64,000 bases of DNA. Source: Pristiophorus japonicus (lineage: Eukaryota). Positions 10,386 through 22,829 of the stretch are shown piece by piece. The position numbers were made by a program, and so were the translations under genes. Under the pieces are notes generated by a model, which saw only the letters and a list, made by a program, of their open reading frames with translations, was not told the origin of the DNA and made no database searches. Within the stretch, counting starts at the first letter, position 1. The number at the start of each line of letters is the position of its first letter. The DNA lies in contig NW_027251843.1 of the NCBI RefSeq assembly GCF_044704955.1, forward strand, positions 434,001 through 498,000, read 5' to 3'.

Positions 10386-12440
10386 GTGATCATAATAAGG
10401 TAGAATTCTTTATTAAGATAGAGAGTGACACAGTTAATTCAGAGACTAAGGTCATGAACTTAAGGAAAGGTGACTTTGATGGTATGAGACGTAAATTGGC
10501 TAGAATAGACTGGCGAATGAAGGATTGATGGTGGATAGGCAATGGCAAACATTTAAAGATCACATGGATGAACTTCAACAATTATACATTCCATAGATAT
10601 GTGAAGAGAAAAAGATTAGTGAAGACAAACATAGGTCCCTTGCAGTCAGAATCAGGTGAATTTATAATGGGGAACAAAGAAATGGCAGACCAGTTGAACA
10701 AATACTTTGGTTCTGTCTTCACGAAGGAAGACACAAATAACCTTTCAGAAATACTAGGGGACAGAGGGTGTAGTGAGAAGGAGGAACTGAAGGAAATCCT
10801 TATTAGGCGGGAAATTGTGTTCGGGAAATTGATGGAATTGAAGGCCAATAAATTCCCAGGGCCTGATAGTCTGCATCCTAGAGCAGTTAAGGAAGTGGCC
10901 CTAGAAATGGTGGAAGCATTGGTGATCATTTTCCAACAGTCTATCGACTCTGGATCAGTTCCTATGGACTGGAGGATGGCTAATGTAAACCTACTTTTTA
11001 AAAAAGGAGGAAGAGAGAAAATGGCTAATTATAGACCGGTTAGCCTGACATCAGTAGTGGGGAAAATGTTGGAATCAATTTTTAAAGATGAAATAGCAGC
11101 GCATTTGGAAAGCAGTGACAGGATCGGTCCAAGTCAGCATGGATTTATGAAAGGGAAATCATGCTTGACAAATCTTCGAGAATTTTTTGAGGATGTAAGT
11201 AGTAGGGTGGACGAGGGAGAACCAGTGGATGTGGTGTATTTGGACTTTCAAAAGGCCTTTGACAAAGTCCCACACAAGAGATTGGTGTGCAAAATTAAAG
11301 CACATGGTATTGGGGGTAATGTACTGACGTGGATGGAGAACTGTTGGCAGACAGGAAGCAGAGAGTCGGGATAAACGGGTCCTTTTCAGAATGGCAGGCA
11401 GGCAGTGACTAGTGGGGTGCCGCAGGGCTCAGTGCTGGGACCCCAGCTATTTACAATATACATCAATGATTTAGATGAAGTAATTGAGTGTAATATCTCC
11501 AAGTTTGCAGATGACATTAAGCTGGCTGGTGGTGTGAGCAGTGAGGAGGATGCTAAGAGTCTGCAGGGTGACTTGGACAGGTTGGGTGAGTGGGCAAATG
11601 CATGGCAGATGAAGTATAATGTGAATAAATGTGAGGATATCCACTTTGGTGGCAAAAACACGAAGGCAGAATATTATCGGAATGGCGGCAGATTAGGAAA
11701 AGGGGAGGTACAACGAGACCTGGTTGTCATGGTACATCAACCATTGAAAGTTGGCATGCAGGTACAGCAGGCGGTGAAGAAGGCAAATGGTATGTTGGCC
11801 TTCATAGCTAGGGGATTTGAGTATAGGAGCAGGGAGGTCTTACTGCAGTTGTACAGGGCCTTGGTGAGGCCTCACCTGAAATATTGTGTTCCGTTTTGGT
11901 CTCCTAAGCTGAGGAAGGACGTTCTTGCTATTGAGGGAGTGCAGCGAAGGTTCATCAGACTGATTCCCGGGATGGCAGGACTGACATATGAGGAGAGACT
12001 GGATCGACTGGGCCTGTATTCACTGGAATTTAGAAGGATGAGAGGGGATCTCATAGAAACATATAAAATTCTGACGGGACTGAACAGGTTAGATGCAGAA
12101 AGAATGTTCCCGATGTTGGGGAAGTCCAGAACTAGGGGACAGAGTCTAAGGATAAGGAGTAAGCCATTTAGGACTGAGATGAGGAGAAACTTATTCACTC
12201 AGAGAATTGTTAACCTGTGGAATTCACTGCCACAGAGAGTTGTGGAAGCCAGTTTGTTGGATATATTCAAGAGGGAGTTAGATATGGCCCTTACGGCTAA
12301 AGGGATCAAAGGGTATGGAAAGAAAGCAGGAAAGGGGTACTGAGGTGAATGAGCAGCCATGATCTTATTGGATGTTGGTGCAGGCTCGAAGGGCCGAATG
12401 GCCTAATCCTGCACCTATTTTCTATGTTTCTATGTTTCTA
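10386..12440 (+). mobile_element. CR1 LINE, young 5'-truncated ORF2 with (TTTCTATG)n tail
   Basis: NYRPVSLTS, YLDFQKAFDKVPH, SGVPQGSVLGP, SKFADD; ORFs 10568-11374 and 11405-12343; CR1 3' UTR and microsatellite tail. Confidence 0.97.
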
Positions 12441-12907
12441 TCCCTGACTCTCTTGACCAGAACCAATAGGATCCAATTGCCCTCACCTTTGACTCAACCA
12501 GACTCCACATTCAACAGATCATCCTCCGTCATTTCCAGCGTGATCCAACCACCAAACACATCCCCTTTCAGGAGCAAAGTGACCTGTCCCTCCATGACAA
12601 GCTGGATCACTCATCTATCACCCCAGCAACCCCCTGCCCTTCCCCACCCCTTCCGATACATAACGCATGAGATGCAACACCTGCCCTTTCACCTCCTTCC
12701 TTCTCATCGTCCAAGGCCCCAAAAATTCCTTCCACGTGAAACAGTCATTTACTTTACCTGTTCCGATTCAGTATAATGTACTTGATGTTCAGGATGCAAT
12801 CTACAGTACATTGGAGTAAACAGATTGTGCGATTACTTTGCTGAACGTATCCATTTAATCTGCAAGCGTTTTCTCTGAGTTTCCGGTTGCTTACCCCTTC
12901 AATTCTC
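12441..12907 (+). mobile_element. Penelope-like element GIY-YIG endonuclease remnant (3' piece)
   Basis: TACATTGGA (YIG)...TTTGCTGAAC (FAE)...CCGGTTGCT...TTCAATTCTCC (PVA..FNSP) matches the Penelope GIY-YIG C-terminus. Confidence 0.6.
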
Positions 12908-13173
12908 CAGGCTGTAATTTGACATTTTATTCAATGTGTTGTACCCCTCAGTGTGTATTGGTCTGTATGTGTTATTAAAGGTGTGCCTTTTACTTCTTTT
13001 TAAACACAATAAAGCCATACCTGCTTCCGACGTTGAAACCAATTGTCTGTCCAAGTCTGTCACAGTCCCTTCATAATTCCAGTGTCTAGAACCAAGGGTG
13101 TGGGAGCGATTCGGAACCGTTCATATAAGGTCAGAAGGGAAAGCTGACCCCCTGCAAACCACCCCTTACATAA

Positions 13174-13191
13174 TGGCGACCCAGATGGGAC
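13174..13191 (+). other. Primer-binding site complementary to tRNA-Arg(CCG)
   Basis: TGGCGACCCAGATGGGAC, 3 nt after the LTR end, is the reverse complement of GTCCCATCTGGGTCG-CCA, the 3' end of vertebrate tRNA-Arg(CCG) as I recall it. Confidence 0.85.
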
Positions 13192-13244
13192 ACTGGTACA
13201 AGGGACGTGATAAGAGAGAGACTGGATTCAGGAAAAGAAGCAAA

Positions 13245-14970
13245 ATGGAAGAGGGGATTTCCTCGTATGTGTTTAAGAAGGTAAATGTGGCTAAGGAGTG
13301 GGTACTCGATCTATTGTATGCTGAGCATCCAGAAGATGCTGCAGCTCAATGCACCGAGAGCAAGGACCATAAAAAGTCAATAGAGAAGGCTATTTGGCTA
13401 ATTTGCCTTCAGCAACAGATCCGGCTTCTAGATGAGGAGAATGAGAATTAAAGGGAGTATTGAGACAGGCAGAAGAGAGGTCCAACGCAAGGGCCACAGT
13501 CGGGGAAAGGCTGTGGACAGAGGTGGGAAAGTTAAAGGAAAGTAGAGAGCTCACTAAAGAAAGGCACAAAACCCAATTGGACCTTTTACAGTGTCAGATT
13601 ATTGAAGCCAAGAATAGCGAACGGGCATTGCGGGAAGAGAATTCCTGCCTCGCCAAGCAAGTTAAAGAGTACGGGCAGAGGGTGAGAGACATTCAGATAG
13701 CCTATAAGGTAGCCAGTACCAGGGAATTTGAGGCAAGAGACCACGGCCCCTGCCAGCAGCAGATCCAAAGCTTGAACCTTGCTCTATCCCGGGCTAAAGG
13801 CATGGTGTGCCTGATAAACCCGGGTTTAGCCCAGGAACACCTGGTTGGGCAAGGAGAAACCCCTCAGTCACCGCCTGCAGCTCCCAGGAACGGCCCGGAG
13901 CAGCAGGGGTGTCAGCCAGAGTGCGGGGCAGGCAAGGATTGCAAACTACCAACACCGGCAGCCCCGAGTTTTAACTCGGCTTGGCAGCAGGGGGAAGAGG
14001 GCAAGCCATAAAAGAAGGGCCAAAACCAGGGCCAATGGACCCGGTCCGGCAGCAGAAGTTTGGCCCGCCTGATGCCAATGGGGCAGCAGGACCCCTAGAA
14101 AGCAACTTCGTAGTCCCCCACGACACCCAAAAACTGAGGGCTATGATAGGCCACCTAAGTAAGCTCACCCAACAGGGGGATCCCTCGGTACACTTCCTGG
14201 AAGTGGAACACACAGGGGATATTAACGGGTGTGATGATTCAGAGCAGGCTAAGTTGTTGCTCTTCTCGCTAGACACCAAGCTGTGAAACACGTACGCTAC
14301 GGTTAAGGAGGAGGTTCTAGAGGCCATGGGTATGAACGACGGGAGTCCTTTCTCCCGAGTGGAGAAAACAGAACAGCTCTATGGGAAGACTCCACAGGCT
14401 TTCGCTGACAGGTTGTGGCCGGTCTACGAAAGGGCCTGTAGTGGGGTTCTTGACCGGGCCCCCCTGACCCCTAACGAGCTGGCTCACTGGCTCCGCAGCC
14501 TGGTGGCAAACAGCTTACCTGGAGTAAAGGCAAAAGCTGAGGTCTGGTTCGATCCAAGAGATCCCAGAACCACCGAGGAGACAGTGGTCAGACAGTTGAC
14601 ACTGGCTTACCGAAACGGTAGAGGGACAGAGGAGCCCTCCTCTAAAGGGAGGGTCCATGAGATTAAACCCAGCCAAGGCAAGAGAGAGTGGCATCAGGAA
14701 GGTGGGAACCCTCCCCACAAAGGGGGCGAGTGTTTTGGGTGTGGGAAAAGTGGGCACTGGAGGAAGGACTGTAGGAACCCATGGAAAGAGACTAAGGGAA
14801 AGGCCACTTCAGCCCCAGCCCGTAAGGCCGGGGCAGGAACACCCGACACATATGAGACACTAGTAGCCACCCTACAGACACTCATAAACAGACAGGGAGC
14901 AGTAGCTATCGCAACCGGTCCAGCAGTCGGTACGGTAAAACCCTCTGCTCCAACCCACCCAGATGCATGA
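13245..14970 (+). pseudogene. gag: gag (coiled-coil N-terminus, capsid-like region, CCHC zinc knuckle), with frameshifts and stops
   Basis: ATG at 13245; ORF pieces 13098-13451, 13460-14011, 13981-14286, 14326-14970; CFGCGKSGHWRKDC knuckle. Confidence 0.88.
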
Positions 14971-17900
14971 CTAGAGCCAGCGCAGCCTGTGTACCTTTGT
15001 TCCCGAGAGTACGATGCCTGGAAGAGACCGTGCGTTACTATGGAAGTGGAGAAAGTGAAAGGGACCTACCTGCTAGATACTGGTGCTTCCAGCACCCTTG
15101 TATATGCAGATAACCCAGCTACCTCACCTTTATCGAACGGGGTCCCGTACAGTCTAGTGGGGTTCACAGGCAATGAGCAAACTGGTTCATTTTCCATCCC
15201 GCTCACCATTTAGTTAGGGACACTCAAAACCAAATGGAAATGTGTCCTGATGGAATGGAAGCAGAAGGGAAAAGGGATCCTGGGGGCTGATTTTATCATT
15301 AGCCACCAGATCCTAGTGGATCTCAGGAACCACTGTCTATGGGGAGCCATAGTGACTGACAGGGAAGGTGAGGTGGCGGTGATCCCAGAAAAAGGGGCCA
15401 AGGGAACATTGTGTACCGTGAAGCCAAAGGAGGGTTATGACTTGGAATTACTGGTCAGTAACACCCCAGTGGAGTAGCAGGCATATGTACGGGCACACCT
15501 TGCAGCATTCGCCACCCAAACATGACTGTGGTAGGGTAACGGGGCTGGAAGTTAGTATAGTAGGGGACCCCATGACCCGACCACAAAAGCAATATAACCT
15601 CCCCAGGGAGGCAGAGGCAGACCTGACAACGGCGCTGGGATCACTGGTAGAGCAAGGGGTGTTAAGACCGATAGCAACCCATGTGAACTCTCCACTGTGG
15701 CCGGTTAAGAAACCGGACAACTCATGGAGGGCCACCGTGGACTATCGAGTACTAAATCAGAATATCCCTGCCTGTGCACCCACTGTAGCAGCCGTAGCGG
15801 ATCTCATAGGGAGTATTCCAGCATCTGCGACCACTTTCACGGTGCTGGATATTTCAAATGGGTTTTGGTCCATTCCTTTAAAACGGGAGGACCAGTACAA
15901 GTTCGCCTTTACCTTTATGGGCCAACAATACACGTGGAACTGTCTTCCCCAAGGCTTCCACAATAGTCCCAGCTTTTTTCACCAATGCATGGCGAACTGT
16001 TTAAAGGGCTTTAGCAGACCCCAGCAGTTGGTGCAGTATTGTAGAATTTACCAATATCTCGCAAAGATTCCAGGTACTTTTCCCCTACAGAGGAGAAGAA
16101 TCCCTTTCTGGGCTTTTAAAATGAGTTTAAAGGGGCAGACGAAGCCTGCGGGGGATAAAAGGGGATGCATTCATGGAGACCCCCACCCGCCCCCGCAGTG
16201 TTTGGACTCATAAGAAAGGGAATTCAAAATGGACCTAAATTACAGAAGCTTGAGATCCCCTAAACATCTATGGGAAGGAGCATATCAATTTTAAGATTCT
16301 ACAACATTTTGGCTGCGAAAAAAGAGTTACCAAATACAGGAGGTGGAGCCAACGTCTGAAGAAAATTTGTTTATAAAGGATCCCAGACAGTCTGGGGGAA
16401 CTATTCACCCCCTAAGAAATAATCGAATTACCCAATCAAGCACAATGGAAATCATGGTCAGAAAAACTGGACAATCCTAAAACAATGCAAAACCAGTGAT
16501 AGCACATTCTCACACCCTAATCGAGTTACTGCTGACAAAGGAGACATTTGAAAATCAATGGACAGAACAGTTCAAACAGAGCCCAAGAGATTTGATGGGA
16601 GATAACAGAGCCTTTTATTGGGACATATCTATCTCCCAGTTTTACAAGGAAAAACTAGCAGAACTCAAAAACTAGCAGAACACAGAAATGAGCAGCACAC
16701 AGGAGAGAAGCAGAAAAACTAGGAGAACACAGGAGAGAAGCAGAACACAGACTGGAACTCGCACAGACTGGAACACAGACACAGACAAGCAGCCTGCTTG
16801 CTCTACAGTGAAGAAATGGAATAGTGAAGGAAACTACCAGAACTTATCAGGAACTGACCGAGCACGAGGCCCACGAAACGGAAGGTTGTCAGCAACCAAA
16901 TTGACAACCACTCTACAATCTACTTCTGAACAAACCAATGGGGGAGAAATTACCAAAAGGGACGAACTAAACTATTCCTAACCAAAGAAAGTGGGTACTT
17001 ACCCCATACATCCAAAACGCAACTTACCGCATCAACGGACGCACCCCAACTGAAGACTACGCAGTCCGAAGTCCTCTCCTCCATCCGGGGTACGGCTTGC
17101 ATCGAAGGCCAAGTGCAGCAAACCCCAAAACCGCGATTCACCGGCAACTGTCGAAAGGGATTGGTGAGCATAGCCCCTGAACCCTCAGAGCTATAACTTA
17201 GTTAGTTAGGGGAATTGGGAGGGGGGAGGCTGGGATAACTTGTGTAAATGTTTCTGCATTCTCCTCTTTACCCCATTTAGAGTTTAAGCTGTATTCTTTT
17301 CCCCACAGGCTGTAATTTGACATTTTATTCAATGTGTTGTACCCCTCAGTGTGTATTGGTCTGTGTGTGTTATTAAAGGTGTGCCTTTTACTTCTTTTTA
17401 AACACAATAAAGCCATACCTGCTACCGACGTTGAAACCGATTGTCTGTCCAAGTCTGTCACAGTCCCTTCATAATTCCAGTGTCTAGAGCCAAGGGTGTG
17501 GGAGCGATTTGAAACCGCTTATATAAGGTCAGAAGGGAAAGCTGACCCCCTGCAAACCACCCCTTACAGTGTGTGGATGATCTGCTCCTGTTCACCAATC
17601 AGGGGGAGGAGCATGGCCCACTGCTGGCTGAGCTGCTGGAGCTGCTAAAAGAAGAAGGGTTTGAAGTAAACCCCAAGAAGGCACAGATCGACCAGAAGGA
17701 AGTCAAATTCCTGGGGCTGACTGTGCGCACTGGGGAAAGGGCCATCGACAAGGCTAGAATGGAGGCAGTACAGGAGTTACCAGCCCCCAACACAGTGACA
17801 GGGGTAAGATTCTTTCTTGGACTCACCGGGTACTGCAGAGACTTCATTGAGGATTATGCAGCCACCGCAGCCCCTCTGCTCAGGCTCCTACACAAGAGTG

Positions 17901-20675
17901 CAGAGTGGGACTGGGATGAGGGTTGCAAGGCAGCATTTAACCAGCTCAAGAAGGACTTGCAGACCGCGCCAGCCTTAGGAGTGATAGATGTAGGAAAGGA
18001 GTTTTTCCTGGAGGTGGCAGCCAGCGGGGACAGTTTGAGCTCAGTGCTGCTTCAAGAGCGGCACAGCCAGCTGAGACCGGTGGTTTACTCCTCCAGGATC
18101 CTCACAGATGTGGAGAAGGGGTACTCCAACTGTGCGAGACATCTCCTAGCCACACATTGGGCAGTGAAAAGATCCTTGATCTTCACGGGAAGGTCTCCTC
18201 TAACACTCCTAATCCACCACACACCTACTCAGATGCTCCTAGATGGGAGGATTAAGGGCGGGACGGTGAGCAGTGCCCGCATTGCTCACTGGACGCTGCT
18301 CCTCTCCCAGATGGACCTCAGAGAAGAAGGCCCCCACGAGCCAAGGCTCTCAGCCAAACTAATCTATCCAGGGAAAGCCCACAGGTGCTCCATAGAAGGG
18401 GTATGGGAGGTGAACATTGGCCTTCGGGCTGGGTTACACCCTACAGGCCGGGACATCGACGTGGAAGGGTCCAGCACGGTATCTGCTGACGAGCGACTCA
18501 CTGGGTGCGGAGTCTACGACCCAAGGACAGGTATTGCACTGGCAATCAAGCTCCCCAGCACCATGAGCGCCCAGCACGCTAAACTGTCCGCCATAATGTA
18601 CGTGGTGATCCACCCCGAGGAATTCCCTACTCCGTACACGATTTGCTCGGACAGTATGGTCACCTGCAATTCATGTACGGAGTACCTGGCTCTCTGGTCC
18701 CGTCGCGGATACACGTCCGCTGATGGGAGACCCCTGGCAATCAAGCCCCTGCTGGAGAAAATCATGACAGCGGTGGGGGAAGAAGGAAAGGTCTACATAC
18801 ATAAGGTGAAGGCCCATTCAAAAACCGAACCCCGTGCAGAGGGAAACCAACAGGCTGACAAACTGGCCAAAGAAGGTGCCCGCACGGGAAAGTTCTGGGA
18901 CTCCTTTGACACCGGCCGCATAGCAGCGGTCAAGAATAAAAACAGGGCAGCAGAGAGTGCAGGGGATAGCCTTGGCCCCGGACTTAAAAACAGTTCAGCT
19001 ACAGGACCCGGTCTGAAAGCTGTCCTGAACGTGCTAGCTAGAGGAGAGAGATTAGAAGGTCCGTACGGAACAGCAGCCATTACCCTTAAGGAAGGCATGC
19101 TGTTTAAAGAGGGACAATGGGTCGTGCCACAGCAGCACCAGAGGGAATTCCTAAAACTGGCCCATGAGGGTCCAGGAGCGGGACACCCCGGGCCTGAGAC
19201 CACCTGGCAACGGGTGGAACAGGCAGGATCGTGGCCGGGACTCAGGGAGGACCTCCGCGAGTTCTGTGCGAACTGCCTGGTGTGTGCTGCGAACAACCCT
19301 GACCCCCAGAAAAGGAAGGTGTCCCTAGGACACATCAGGAGGGTAGAGGGACCATGGCAGTCAATCCAAATTGACTACATCTGCCCTTACCCACTGCCCA
19401 GGGAGGCTACAAATACTGCCTCGTCCTGGTGGACGTGTTCTCAAAATGGGTTGAAGCCTTCCCCTGCCGAACAGCCACCGCACTAGGGACAGTTAAGATT
19501 CTAGTCAGGGAAGTGTTCTCCCGGTGGGGACTCCCACAGTATGTGGAGTCGGACCAGGGGAGCCATTTCACCGGGCAGGTAATGCAGGCAACCCTTAAGG
19601 AGCTCGGCATTGAGGGGAAATGGCACGTTGCCCACAATCCACAGTCATCCGGTATTGTGGAGCGTTTAAACCGCACCATTAAAGAAAGGCTGCGGAAGAA
19701 AATGGGAGACTCACCCCAAAAGTGGGTGGAGGTCTTACCGTTGGTCCTAATGGGGATCCGAGCCCAGCCAGTCAGAGCACGGGGTATTCCCCATACGAGC
19801 TCATGACTGGCCGGATCATGCAGACCCCCACCCATGTCCTAGCCCCGGTGCTCACAGAAGGCCAGCTCAGAGAGGTGTACCAGGACCAGTTTGTCAGGAA
19901 CCTGTTTGAACACCTCAAATAGATTCACTGGCAGGCTGCTAGTAACATGGGCAGACAGCATCAGGGGAACCGATTGCTGCTAGAACCCAGCAAACACCAC
20001 GAATGGGAGATGGGGGACCAGCTCATGGTGAGGAACTGTGCTCGGGTCAGGGTTTTTGAAGCATTATATATGGGGCCATACAGCATTGTGGATAAGGCAA
20101 GCCTGATGGTCTATGCCATAAAGCTGCCCCGCCGTACTAAGTGGTTCCACATCAATCAGTGCAAGCTGTACAACCTAGGATCAGCCAAACACAGATGGCA
20201 GCCGGGAGGGGTGAACCGTCCTCAGGACAGGGACCCTCCGTTGGCCGCCCCTGACAGTGGAGGGCCCACAGGGAATGTGGCAGGCTCAGAAACCGTGCCT
20301 ATAGGGGCGGTGAATTGCAGTACTGGAGGAGCTATCCCACCCATCGTTTGGGATTCGGACGCACCCCCAGTAACCCAAGCCCTGAGAAGGCCCTTCCGTA
20401 CACCACGGCCAAAGATACCGTGGTCACCGGCATCTGAGCCTCAGCGATTCTACCCTTGGAGAAGGGCAGCCCGACAGGAAAGGCCGAATGTCAGAAGTAC
20501 AGAGGATGCTCAGAGTAGGGACCACCAGCCAGCCGCCTCCAGCGGTGAGGGTCTCACAGGAGCAGTAGCAACGAGCTGTCCCAGAGACAAGGGTCTCCAG
20601 CTCACCGGGAGCGGGGAAATCCTAGCATCCAGGCGGCTATCAGGCCGCACAAGGCATGGGCCTGACAGGGACTAA
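14971..20675 (+). pseudogene. pol: pol (protease-RT-tether-RNase H-integrase with GPY/F tail), disrupted by stops, frameshifts and a solo LTR
   Basis: LLDTGAS; LDISNGFWS, LPQGFHNSP, QY|VDD; tether FFLEVAAS..LRPVVYSS; RNase H VEGSS/SAQHAKL/SDS/KVKAH/GNQQADKLAK; integrase H-H-C-C, IQIDY, SDQGSHF, VERLNRTIK; YMGPY. Confidence 0.92.
16040..17568 (+). mobile_element. Solo LTR (1529 bp) of the same family, inserted into the RT gene
   Basis: TGTAGAATT...CCTTACA, homologous to 21229-22664; flanked by GTAT/GTGT (4-bp TSD with one mismatch). Confidence 0.95.
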
Positions 20676-21228
20676 CCAGGCCACCTGGAGACGGGTGGTG
20701 GTTGTATATAGCTCTAATTTTAGTTTAAGGCAGCTGACTGCACCATTTTAAGGTTTAGTTTAGAATTGAGGGTAATGTTGCAGTAATGTTTAGGTGATTA
20801 TTTTGAGTTTGTCTTGTGTGTCAGCCAGCCTGAGAGCAGTTCTCAAGGGCAGGATCCAGACATTACCAGGTGATGGACAAACCTCAGGAGACCAATTGAT
20901 GTTGTTTAATTTTAATCTAGGGTTTTTTCCCTTCTGTAATGTGGTTGTACGTTGCCTATATGCTGGTGAATATAATGTAACTGAAATGAAATGTAACTGT
21001 GCTGAAATGCAATTGTAGTGATTGAACCCCCTCCAAGCTGGGATGGTATAAATGTAAAAAGTTTGTACCTGTAAAGGGAAAAGTGTGCATCTATGGTGAT
21101 GTTGCATAAATGTAATGCATTTTGGATATTAGTTTAGCTAATTTACGGGGAAGGTTATCTCTTAGGAGTCAGGAAATTTGCTCACCTCGAAGAATGATAC
21201 CATAAGTGATATGGTATCACAGGGAGAA

Positions 21229-22664
21229 TGTAGAATTTACCAATATCTCGCAAAGATTCCAGGTACCTTTCCCCTGCAGAGGAGAAGAATCCCTTTCTGG
21301 GCTTTTAAAATGAGTTTAAAGGGGCAGACGAAGCCTGCGGGGGATAAAAGGGGATGCATTCATGGAGACCCCCCCCCCCCCGCCAGTGTTTAGACTCATA
21401 GGAAAGGGAATTCAAAATGGACATAAATTACAGAAGCTTGAGATCCCCTAAACATCTATGGGAAGGAGCATATCAATTTTAAGATTCTACAACATTTTGG
21501 CTGCGAAAAAGAGTTACCAAATACAGGAGGTGGAGCCAACATCTGAAACAAATTTGTGTATTAAGGATCCCAGGCTATTCACCCCCTAAGAGATAATCGG
21601 ATTACCCAATCAAGCACAATGGAAATCATGGTCAGAAAAACTGGACAATCCTAAAACAATGCAAAACCAGTGACAGCACATTCTCACACCCTAATTGAGT
21701 TACTGCTGACAAAGGAGACATTTGAAAATCAATGGACAGAACAGTTTAAACAGAGCCCAAGAGATTTGATGGGAGATAACAGAGCTTTTTTTGGGAATAT
21801 ATCTATCCCCCAGTTTTACAAGGAAAGACTAGCAGAACACAGAAGCTAGCAGAACACAGACTCGAACAAGGAACAGACTGGAACACAGACACAGACACAA
21901 GCAGCTGGAGCTGGGGAGTGAAGAAATGGAGTAGTGAAGGAAATTACAAGAAATCCTCAAGGACCGACCAACCAAAACCTACTCAGCAAAAACCGAAGAA
22001 TCGTCATTTATTTCCACTCTACAATCTACTTCTGAACAGCCAACGGGTGAGAAATTACCTAAAAGGACTAACTGAAACCAAAGAAAGTGGCTACTTATCC
22101 CATACATCCGAAACGCAACTTACCGCATCAACGGACGCACCCCAACTGAAGACTACGCAGTCCGAAGTCCTCACCTCCATCCGGGGTGTGGCTTGCCCAG
22201 AAGGCCAAGTGCAGAGAACCCCGAAACCGTGATTTACCGGCAACTGTCTAAAGGGATTGGTGAGCATCGCCCATGAACCCTCAGAGCTATAGCTTAGTTA
22301 GTTAGGGGAATTGGGAGGGGGGAGGCTGGGATAACTTGTGTAAATATAGCTGCATTCTCCTTTTTACCCCATTTAGAGTTTAAGCTGTATTCTTTTCCCC
22401 ACAGGCTGTAATTTGACATTTTATTCAATGTGTTGTACCCCTCAGTGTGTATTGGTCTGTGTGTGTTATTAAAGGTGTGCCTTTTACTTCTTTTTAAACA
22501 CAATAAAGCCATACCTGCTTCCTACCTTGAAACCGATTGTCTGTCCAAGTCTGACACAGTCCCTTCATAATTCCAATGCCGAGAACCAAGGGTGTGGGAG
22601 CGATTCGGAACCACTCATATAAGGTCAGAAGGGAAAGCTGACCCCCTGAAAACCACCCCTTACA
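21229..22664 (+). mobile_element. 3' LTR (1436 bp) preceded by PPT AGGGAGAA (21221-21228)
   Basis: TG...CA termini; AATAAA at ~22502; last ~260 bp match 12908-13170. Confidence 0.95.
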
Positions 22665-22829
22665 CGGTGAAATATCCGATTACCCTCAATGATACAATTA
22701 ATGAATAAACAGAATAACTGAGCACAGCCCAGAGGCGGGTGCCAGTGTTTCCAGTCGAGGAATGTAATATTTCGCCCCAGACTTCCATCCACTGAATTAC
22801 ACCAGGAATGGCTGGTGATCTGATAATGG

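Follow-up and report, generated by a model that had tools for sequence, protein, structure and literature searches.

The gag-pol junction of the window element

The DNA analysed here, hereafter the window, is a stretch of 64,000 nucleotides (nt) from Pristiophorus japonicus (contig NW_027251843.1 of assembly GCF_044704955.1, positions 434,001 to 498,000, forward strand), and our study concerns a decayed long terminal repeat (LTR) retroelement without env that lies in it, in a genome of 5.9 Gb. The gag and pro-pol genes of this element are separated by one in-frame TGA followed by CTAG, and the original prediction held that the family makes Gag-Pol by readthrough of this UGA-CUAG signal. The following features bear on that claim:

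13245..14970, + strand: gag, start codon inferred, with a putative N-terminal coiled coil, a capsid region, one zinc knuckle and a Pro-rich tail
14731..14772, + strand: CCHC zinc knuckle, in the frame shared with the stop and the protease
14968..14974, + strand: gag stop TGA with its 3' context CTAG, the predicted readthrough site
14971..20675, + strand: pro-pol, with the protease DTG at 15076, a split reverse transcriptase (RT) and a terminal TAA at 20673 after a long tail
14971..15039, + strand: the 23 codons from the stop to the first in-frame ATG, encoding 10 residues invariant across four families
15040..15042, + strand: earliest in-frame ATG behind the stop, lying 12 codons ahead of the catalytic Asp

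Re-reading the junction codons, CCA (14959) GAT GCA TGA (14968) CTA (14971) GAG CCA GCG CAG CCT GTG (14989) TAC, returned a gag end and an in-frame pro-pol start identical to those first described. From the zinc-knuckle Cys codon (14731) to the protease DTG (15076) there are 345 nt in one frame; therefore gag, stop and protease share that frame. Pfam places zf-CCHC ahead of the stop and a retroviral aspartyl protease behind it, both under curated cut-offs. On both strands of the window CTAG follows 4 of 2,290 TGA triplets, and within the internal region of the element it follows 1 of 117, the site at 14968 alone. The sequence agrees with the Beier-Grimm type II definition (UGA, then CUA or CGG) and departs from the gammaretroviral type III stop context, UAG-G, the site being TGA-C.

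Conservation of the stop and its context

The 40 best DNA matches to the junction all have TGA, followed by CTAG in 32, CTAA in seven and CTGG in one. Such matches are biased towards near copies, hence we also used patterns in which the stop was left free, counting by hand in the first 100 matches listed. For the window family (family A), leaving the stop and the next four bases free gave 394 matches, the first 100 of which have TGA in 92 cases, TAA in two and a sense codon in six, all six being single-base neighbours of TGA; the 92 TGA copies continue with CTAG (54), CTAA (28), CGAG (6) or singletons (4). A joint pattern for four families with 16 positions free found 2,023 genomic matches (control, 0), and in the first 100 of them there are 98 with TGA and 84 with TGA-CTAG. 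In a further sample anchored on the primer-binding site (PBS), TGA is present at all 29 loci that have a protease; nine of the 38 loci fetched have no protease within 3 kb, several being deleted or interrupted, and stand outside the junction counts. Across copies and the four families, TGA, its frame and the CUA context are conserved, as the original prediction required.

We considered TGA-CGAG as a second type II context kept by selection and rejected it: in a tree of 68 copies, the three with CGAG do not group together. Because of this scatter, and because T>G at other CTAG sites runs at about 12 times background (18/840 against 86/49,840 site-copies), the variant is the unselected product of a mutational hotspot. 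In family A, T>G is also raised in CTA contexts that are not CTAG, to five times its frequency at the remaining T sites.

TGA-CTAG is common to the four families A, B, C and E, exactly 36 codons before the catalytic Asp. In family B, whose Pol is about 80% identical to that of family A, it was found at 28 of 30 loci, the reading in the two others having ended at nearer private stops; family C has TGA at 14 of 14 loci, with CTAG at 11, and the two loci of family E have CTAG and CTGG, respectively. When one natural copy of each family is compared, identity over the last 110 codons of Gag is 25-43%. At four-fold sites within the first 330 codons of pol, pairs of families show 32-54% identity, and 18 of 104 such sites are the same in all four. 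One codon is kept at four of the 24 shared Leu positions, and CTA is kept only at the junction. The G at +4 is retained as well, though the second codon encodes Glu, Ala, Gly and Ala in A, B, C and E. Since TGA-CTA-G has been kept while synonymous sites and Gag tails turned over, the stop and its context are inherited and under selection, with constraint at the nucleotide level.

Beyond these four, families D, F and G (loci L137-L154, L168-L183 and L189-L202) also have an in-frame TGA at the same junction. Family D has TGA-ATCG at 13 loci and TGA-ATC/ATT overall, some copies with two zinc knuckles; family F has TGA-TGCC at four loci; and family G has TGA-CTG/CAG, 10 of its 17 loci being without a readable in-frame junction. 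Families D and F lie outside the clade of snakehead retrovirus (SnRV) in the RT tree described below.

The codons behind the stop also bear marks of translation. The ratio of non-synonymous to synonymous differences (pN/pS; raw proportions, six pairs pooled) is 0.30 for codons 2-23 and 0.17 further on; six of the 10 codons for invariant residues before the first ATG vary synonymously; and Pfam RVP homology begins at codon 17, ahead of that ATG at codon 24. These codons thus evolve as protein, and they are reachable only via the stop or by splicing, of which the latter is disfavoured by the sequence evidence below.

Readthrough and competing explanations

The conservation of TGA-CTA-G across diverged families, together with the coding-type evolution behind the stop, makes it likely that an inherited gag stop in frame with pro-pol is leaky and that UGA-CUAG yields Gag-Pol by readthrough. 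Ribosomes would mostly terminate at the UGA and release Gag, whereas in a few percent of cases a near-cognate tRNA would be accepted there and an amino acid inserted, giving Gag-Pol. The residue inserted would be Trp, Cys or Arg. The main stimulator would be CUA(G), acting as a type II context by weakening termination, with 3' structure contributing weakly at most. As regards the claim that the family uses UGA-CUAG readthrough, the stop, its frame, the CUA context and coding behind the stop all hold, which makes the claim likely as judged from genomic sequence, while the G at +4 turned out to be variable.

Several points weigh against this reading. The window copy has a gag that is disrupted upstream of the junction, where the frame changes near 13433-13445 and again near 14008-14014 and a stop codon lies at 14284; the junction of this copy is therefore a fossil signal. 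The variable +4 G is lacking in the 28 CTAA copies counted above, although the +4 base matters in the readthrough of OPRL1 (PMC4132726). The 11 CTAA copies placed on the tree form one clade, i.e. a replicated subfamily, and because this subfamily of family A replicated, the seventh base of the signal is dispensable, as in some vertebrate genes. Since families D (TGA-ATCG) and F (TGA-TGCC) replicated without CUA, CUAG itself is dispensable lineage-wide. Moreover, the four families that share it are few independent lineages, all in one genome. The ATG 24 codons downstream is in good context and common to A, B, C and E; SnRV and families D, F and G have no Met at that position. Finally, the gag-UGA-pol junction of Tca2 alone gave no readthrough in yeast (PMC2194720).

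The alternative that survives best, possible but rather unlikely, is that readthrough is driven chiefly by 3' RNA structure, as in murine leukaemia virus or Venezuelan equine encephalitis virus, with CUAG contributing only. It would account for the fact that all four families share codons 6 (CCT) and 9 (CTG) as well, and that over the first 25 codons three of six four-fold sites do not vary, against 18/104 overall. Compared with shuffled sequence, the 150 nt that follow the stop give better folds in SnRV (z -2.61) and in families B (-1.60), C (-2.43) and D (-1.85). In the window family, however, the fold is no better than the shuffles (z -0.18 and 0.01), and the downstream folding proposed with the original prediction brought out no conserved structure. 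RNAalifold on seven sequences, limited to nested pairs, found a two-sided change in 2 of its 23 pairs; the covariation term was only -0.75, and the structure shifted with the region supplied. A conserved 3' stem-loop is not supported by these analyses of nested structures, although a downstream helper element may contribute.

A separate Pol might instead start at the AUG at +24, through reinitiation, an internal promoter or a foamy-like spliced pol RNA, the stop being a plain terminator. The ATG in the representatives of A, B, C and E is indeed followed by G and mostly has a purine at -3, the Tca2 junction holds a minor promoter (PMC2194720), and the terminal AG of CTAG could serve as a splice acceptor. 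Nevertheless, we regard this as improbable: the 22 codons ahead of the ATG show the coding constraint given above, protease homology included; the Met is not shared by SnRV and families D, F and G; and a plain terminator need not remain UGA-CUA. As an acceptor the site is poor, with no polypyrimidine tract (43-52% pyrimidine) and with nearer upstream AGs in three of the four families, and the replicated CTAA-GG subfamily moves the AG by one base.

Decoding of the UGA as selenocysteine through a selenocysteine insertion sequence (SECIS) is very hard to sustain: every family of this genome uses UGA at this codon, but Rfam SECIS models had no match in 12900-22700 at E<=1 (the two matches to other families are at chance level), the position belongs to a variable linker and is not that of a catalytic residue, and SnRV bears UAG there. 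That the stop is a decay mutation, as the several private stops and frameshifts of the window copy might suggest, or a functionless founder accident can practically be dismissed, and a private mutation was rejected, because TGA-CTAG recurs in the family copies (first 100 of the 2,023 matches) and in four families whose synonymous sites have turned over, long open frames flank the stop in many family B copies, and the few sense variants each differ from TGA by one base.

The host element and comparison with known systems

The remaining features of the element are as follows:

12908..13170, + strand: 5' LTR remnant, the 3' 263 nt only, matching the end of the 3' LTR at 95.8% identity, the rest replaced by other repeat DNA
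13174..13191, + strand: PBS, TGGCGACCCAGATGGGAC
16040..17568, + strand: solo LTR of the same family nested in the RT, target duplication of 4 nt, GTAT/GTGT
about 17987-18310, + strand: degenerate RNase H tether of pro-pol (Pfam)
about 18464-18880, + strand: RNase H of pro-pol (Pfam)
about 19124-19641, + strand: integrase of pro-pol, with an SH3-like part at about 20064-20171
21218..21228, + strand: polypurine tract
21229..22664, + strand: 3' LTR of 1,436 nt, TG...CA

Pro-pol is interrupted by stops at 15211 and 15475, by frame changes near 15520 and 19385 and by the nested solo LTR, whose insertion point falls exactly at the RT motif YVDD. Only about 550 nt of the window element separate the end of pol from the LTR, and the family therefore has no env. 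Four other copies of the window family have LTR pairs 97.1-98.4% identical (four of six gave a value). The PBS at 13174 is one that we take to be of the tRNA-Arg type, and SnRV reportedly has an arginine-tRNA primer-binding site too; of 568 pattern matches to the PBS, the six loci checked held no matching tRNA gene. Inside the LTR (17175-17310 and 22260-22406) there is an intron-like arrangement, GT...pyrimidine tract-CAG, and the 5' LTR remnant starts at that CAG. Directly upstream of the remnant, LINE-type reverse-transcriptase frames were recognised by eye at 10529-12343, and positions 1-2400 of the window are a tandem array with a period of 24 nt. The locus at 12900-22700, including the truncated 5' LTR, the nested LTR and the upstream LINE-type frame, recurs on another contig (C8; L002/L040) with 99% identity over the 301 bases compared, which makes that recurrence a segmental duplicate or an alternative haplotype.

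Our analyses place the element, with moderate tree support, among SnRV-like endogenous retroviruses (ERVs), SnRV being its nearest named virus. In an RT tree of 47 rows, built from single natural copies with X at stops and with foamy and lokiretrovirus rows left out, families A, B, C and E group at 100/100 and fall inside a clade of 24 rows with SnRV and amphibian and coelacanth rows, whose support of 92/94 is slightly below the star threshold of the tool. RT identity is 44.7% to SnRV and 33-39% to gamma/epsilon-type rows, and among the rows searched in the PMC7947760 supplement, those of SnRV alone share ISNGFW, an RT motif of the window element. The pol domains recognised by Pfam (protease, RT, tether, second RNase H and integrase) make up a retrovirus-type set. 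The closest database proteins are unnamed or automatically named Pol sequences of amphibians and coelacanth, at 41-46%, with one unnamed match at 71%; SnRV-like ERVs have been reported in coelacanth, zebrafish and elephant shark. Among viral contigs, one of 28 IMG/VR candidates is a relative and the sole one found there (a further search gave 0 of 1): L121, a viral contig of 10,688 nt that bears the RT motif of the SnRV rows and has gag-TAG-GGC-pol in frame at the same place. None of 97 metagenome candidates with DNA context was a relative, and three further pattern matches had no pol homology.

SnRV-type Gag has a coiled-coil region, and families A, B and L121 give weak Pfam coiled-coil matches, under the cut-off. 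The window family lacks the env and accessory frames of a complete SnRV-type provirus. Family B (L051-L080, L119, L120, L206 and L207), a younger sister whose LTR pairs are 99.4% and 99.8% identical in two copies, has an env-like frame with a weak Ig-domain match, in which the 359 residues scanned had no match to PF00523 (fusion glycoprotein). In many of its copies gag and pol remain open over long stretches either side of the stop, and some copies use another PBS. An open frame of 128 codons without a Pfam match overlaps family B pol out of frame (L119:7430-7813, L120:7436-7819); a similar overlapping frame, Orf-x2, has been described in XtERV-S. Two other identities were dropped: that of a lokiretrovirus, our first guess, as the RT motif and the RT tree (without lokiretrovirus rows) point to SnRV, and that of a foamy virus, as gag and pol here share a frame and a CCHC is present. 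Foamy Gag is not known to carry a CCHC. Foamy pol is reported to lie in a different frame with its own start codon.

With this affiliation, the view that the strategy is unusual for a retrovirus-like element does not stand: in this lineage an in-frame gag stop is expected to be read through, SnRV having UAG-GGC (its in-frame UAG is also stated in PMC13517186) and XtERV-S an in-frame TGA between gag and pol, so that only the CUAG context is unusual. It is this context that appears to be new, and no new class of mechanism is revealed. The consulted part of a 2026 review (PMC13517186) gives no CUA(G) context for any retrovirus, and we found no prior report of one in a search that left most subscription literature and Repbase notes outside. 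The comparison also drew on PMC8278194, PMC4600332, PMC12193657, PMC4977317, PMC4422223, PMC2717909 and PMC12440569. The same genome offers a natural series of junctions, UGA-CUAG, UGA-CUAA, UGA-CUGG/CAGG, UGA-AUC and UGA-UGC, to which SnRV adds UAG-GGC, and this series permits context-driven and structure-driven control of Gag-Pol to be compared. In addition, Pol proteins of this group that start at a Met beside the catalytic Asp (P0002-P0004, P0007 and P0008) may be truncated models.

SnRV resembles the window family in having a Gag with one CCHC and an in-frame stop 32 codons before the protease Asp (36 here); it differs in its type III UAG-GGC, as opposed to type II UGA-CUAG, in that the window family is without env, and in Gag sequences that can barely be aligned. 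Gamma- and epsilonretroviruses as a rule read through a gag stop that is in frame with pol, although, according to PMC13517186, this has yet to be verified by experiment for the latter and the signals used by unclassified fish retroviruses are unclear. Readthrough is presumed for OVEX1, too. An in-frame gag-UGA-pol arrangement, with presumed readthrough, is shared with the fish and amphibian retroviruses SSSV (UGAAGA), ZFERV (UGACGA), RMEV (UGAAGU) (PMC13517186) and XtERV-S, but these belong to other clades and the contexts of the first three are all non-CUA. Two fungal elements, Tj1 of S. japonicus and Tca2 of C. albicans, also have gag-UGA-pol in frame, and transposition of Tj1 requires the stop.

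The heptanucleotide UGA-CUAG is identical to that of the vertebrate genes OPRK1, OPRL1, AQP4, MAPK10 and MDH1; in HEK-293T reporters, readthrough was up to about 31% with OPRL1, about 3.5% with MDH1 and 1.5% with UGA-CUA by itself (PMC4132726). Here as in those systems, the seventh base is less fixed than the six before it. The alphavirus UGA-CUA is likewise Beier-Grimm type II, and UGACUA has been recorded for alphaviruses and a triatovirus (PMC13517186). In contrast to host genes and alphaviruses, the signal here would set the ratio of Gag to Gag-Pol of a retroelement, adding retroviruses to the users of type II signals.

The teleost lokiretroviruses resemble the window family in a TGA-CTA(G/A) junction, a dual RNase H and probably a coiled coil ahead of the capsid. 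In the supplement of PMC7947760 the set comprises 24 sequences, 10 annotated with a single gag-pol frame and 14 with a separate pol, one without a junction; frames were read by eye in six of the latter 14, covering 16 of the 17 motif matches. We found that gag runs through an in-frame TGA-CTAG in Loki-Ofa, -Cne, -Pyo and -Sau and TGA-CTAA in -Bsp into the annotated pol, and the consulted part of the main text has no mention of readthrough, read-through, frameshift or stop codon; readthrough would explain the separate annotation of gag and pol in these published viruses. Because lokiretroviruses are a separate lineage, sister to all retroviruses (PMC7947760), and because SnRV and families D and F differ at the junction, the occurrence of TGA-CTA(G) in both lineages suggests convergence, independent adoption being the simpler reading. 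We lean, with some reserve, towards the view that at least two deep lineages of retroviruses in aquatic vertebrates adopted UGA-CUA(G) independently as the switch from Gag to Gag-Pol, as a context-only and largely structure-free signal. Moloney murine leukaemia virus also makes Gag-Pol via an in-frame stop between zinc knuckle and protease, but it does so with UAG-G and an H-type pseudoknot, as opposed to UGA-C and no supported structure here. If this view is true, a motif of host genes replaces UAG-plus-pseudoknot control in the SnRV-like clade and in the teleost lokiretrovirus clade.

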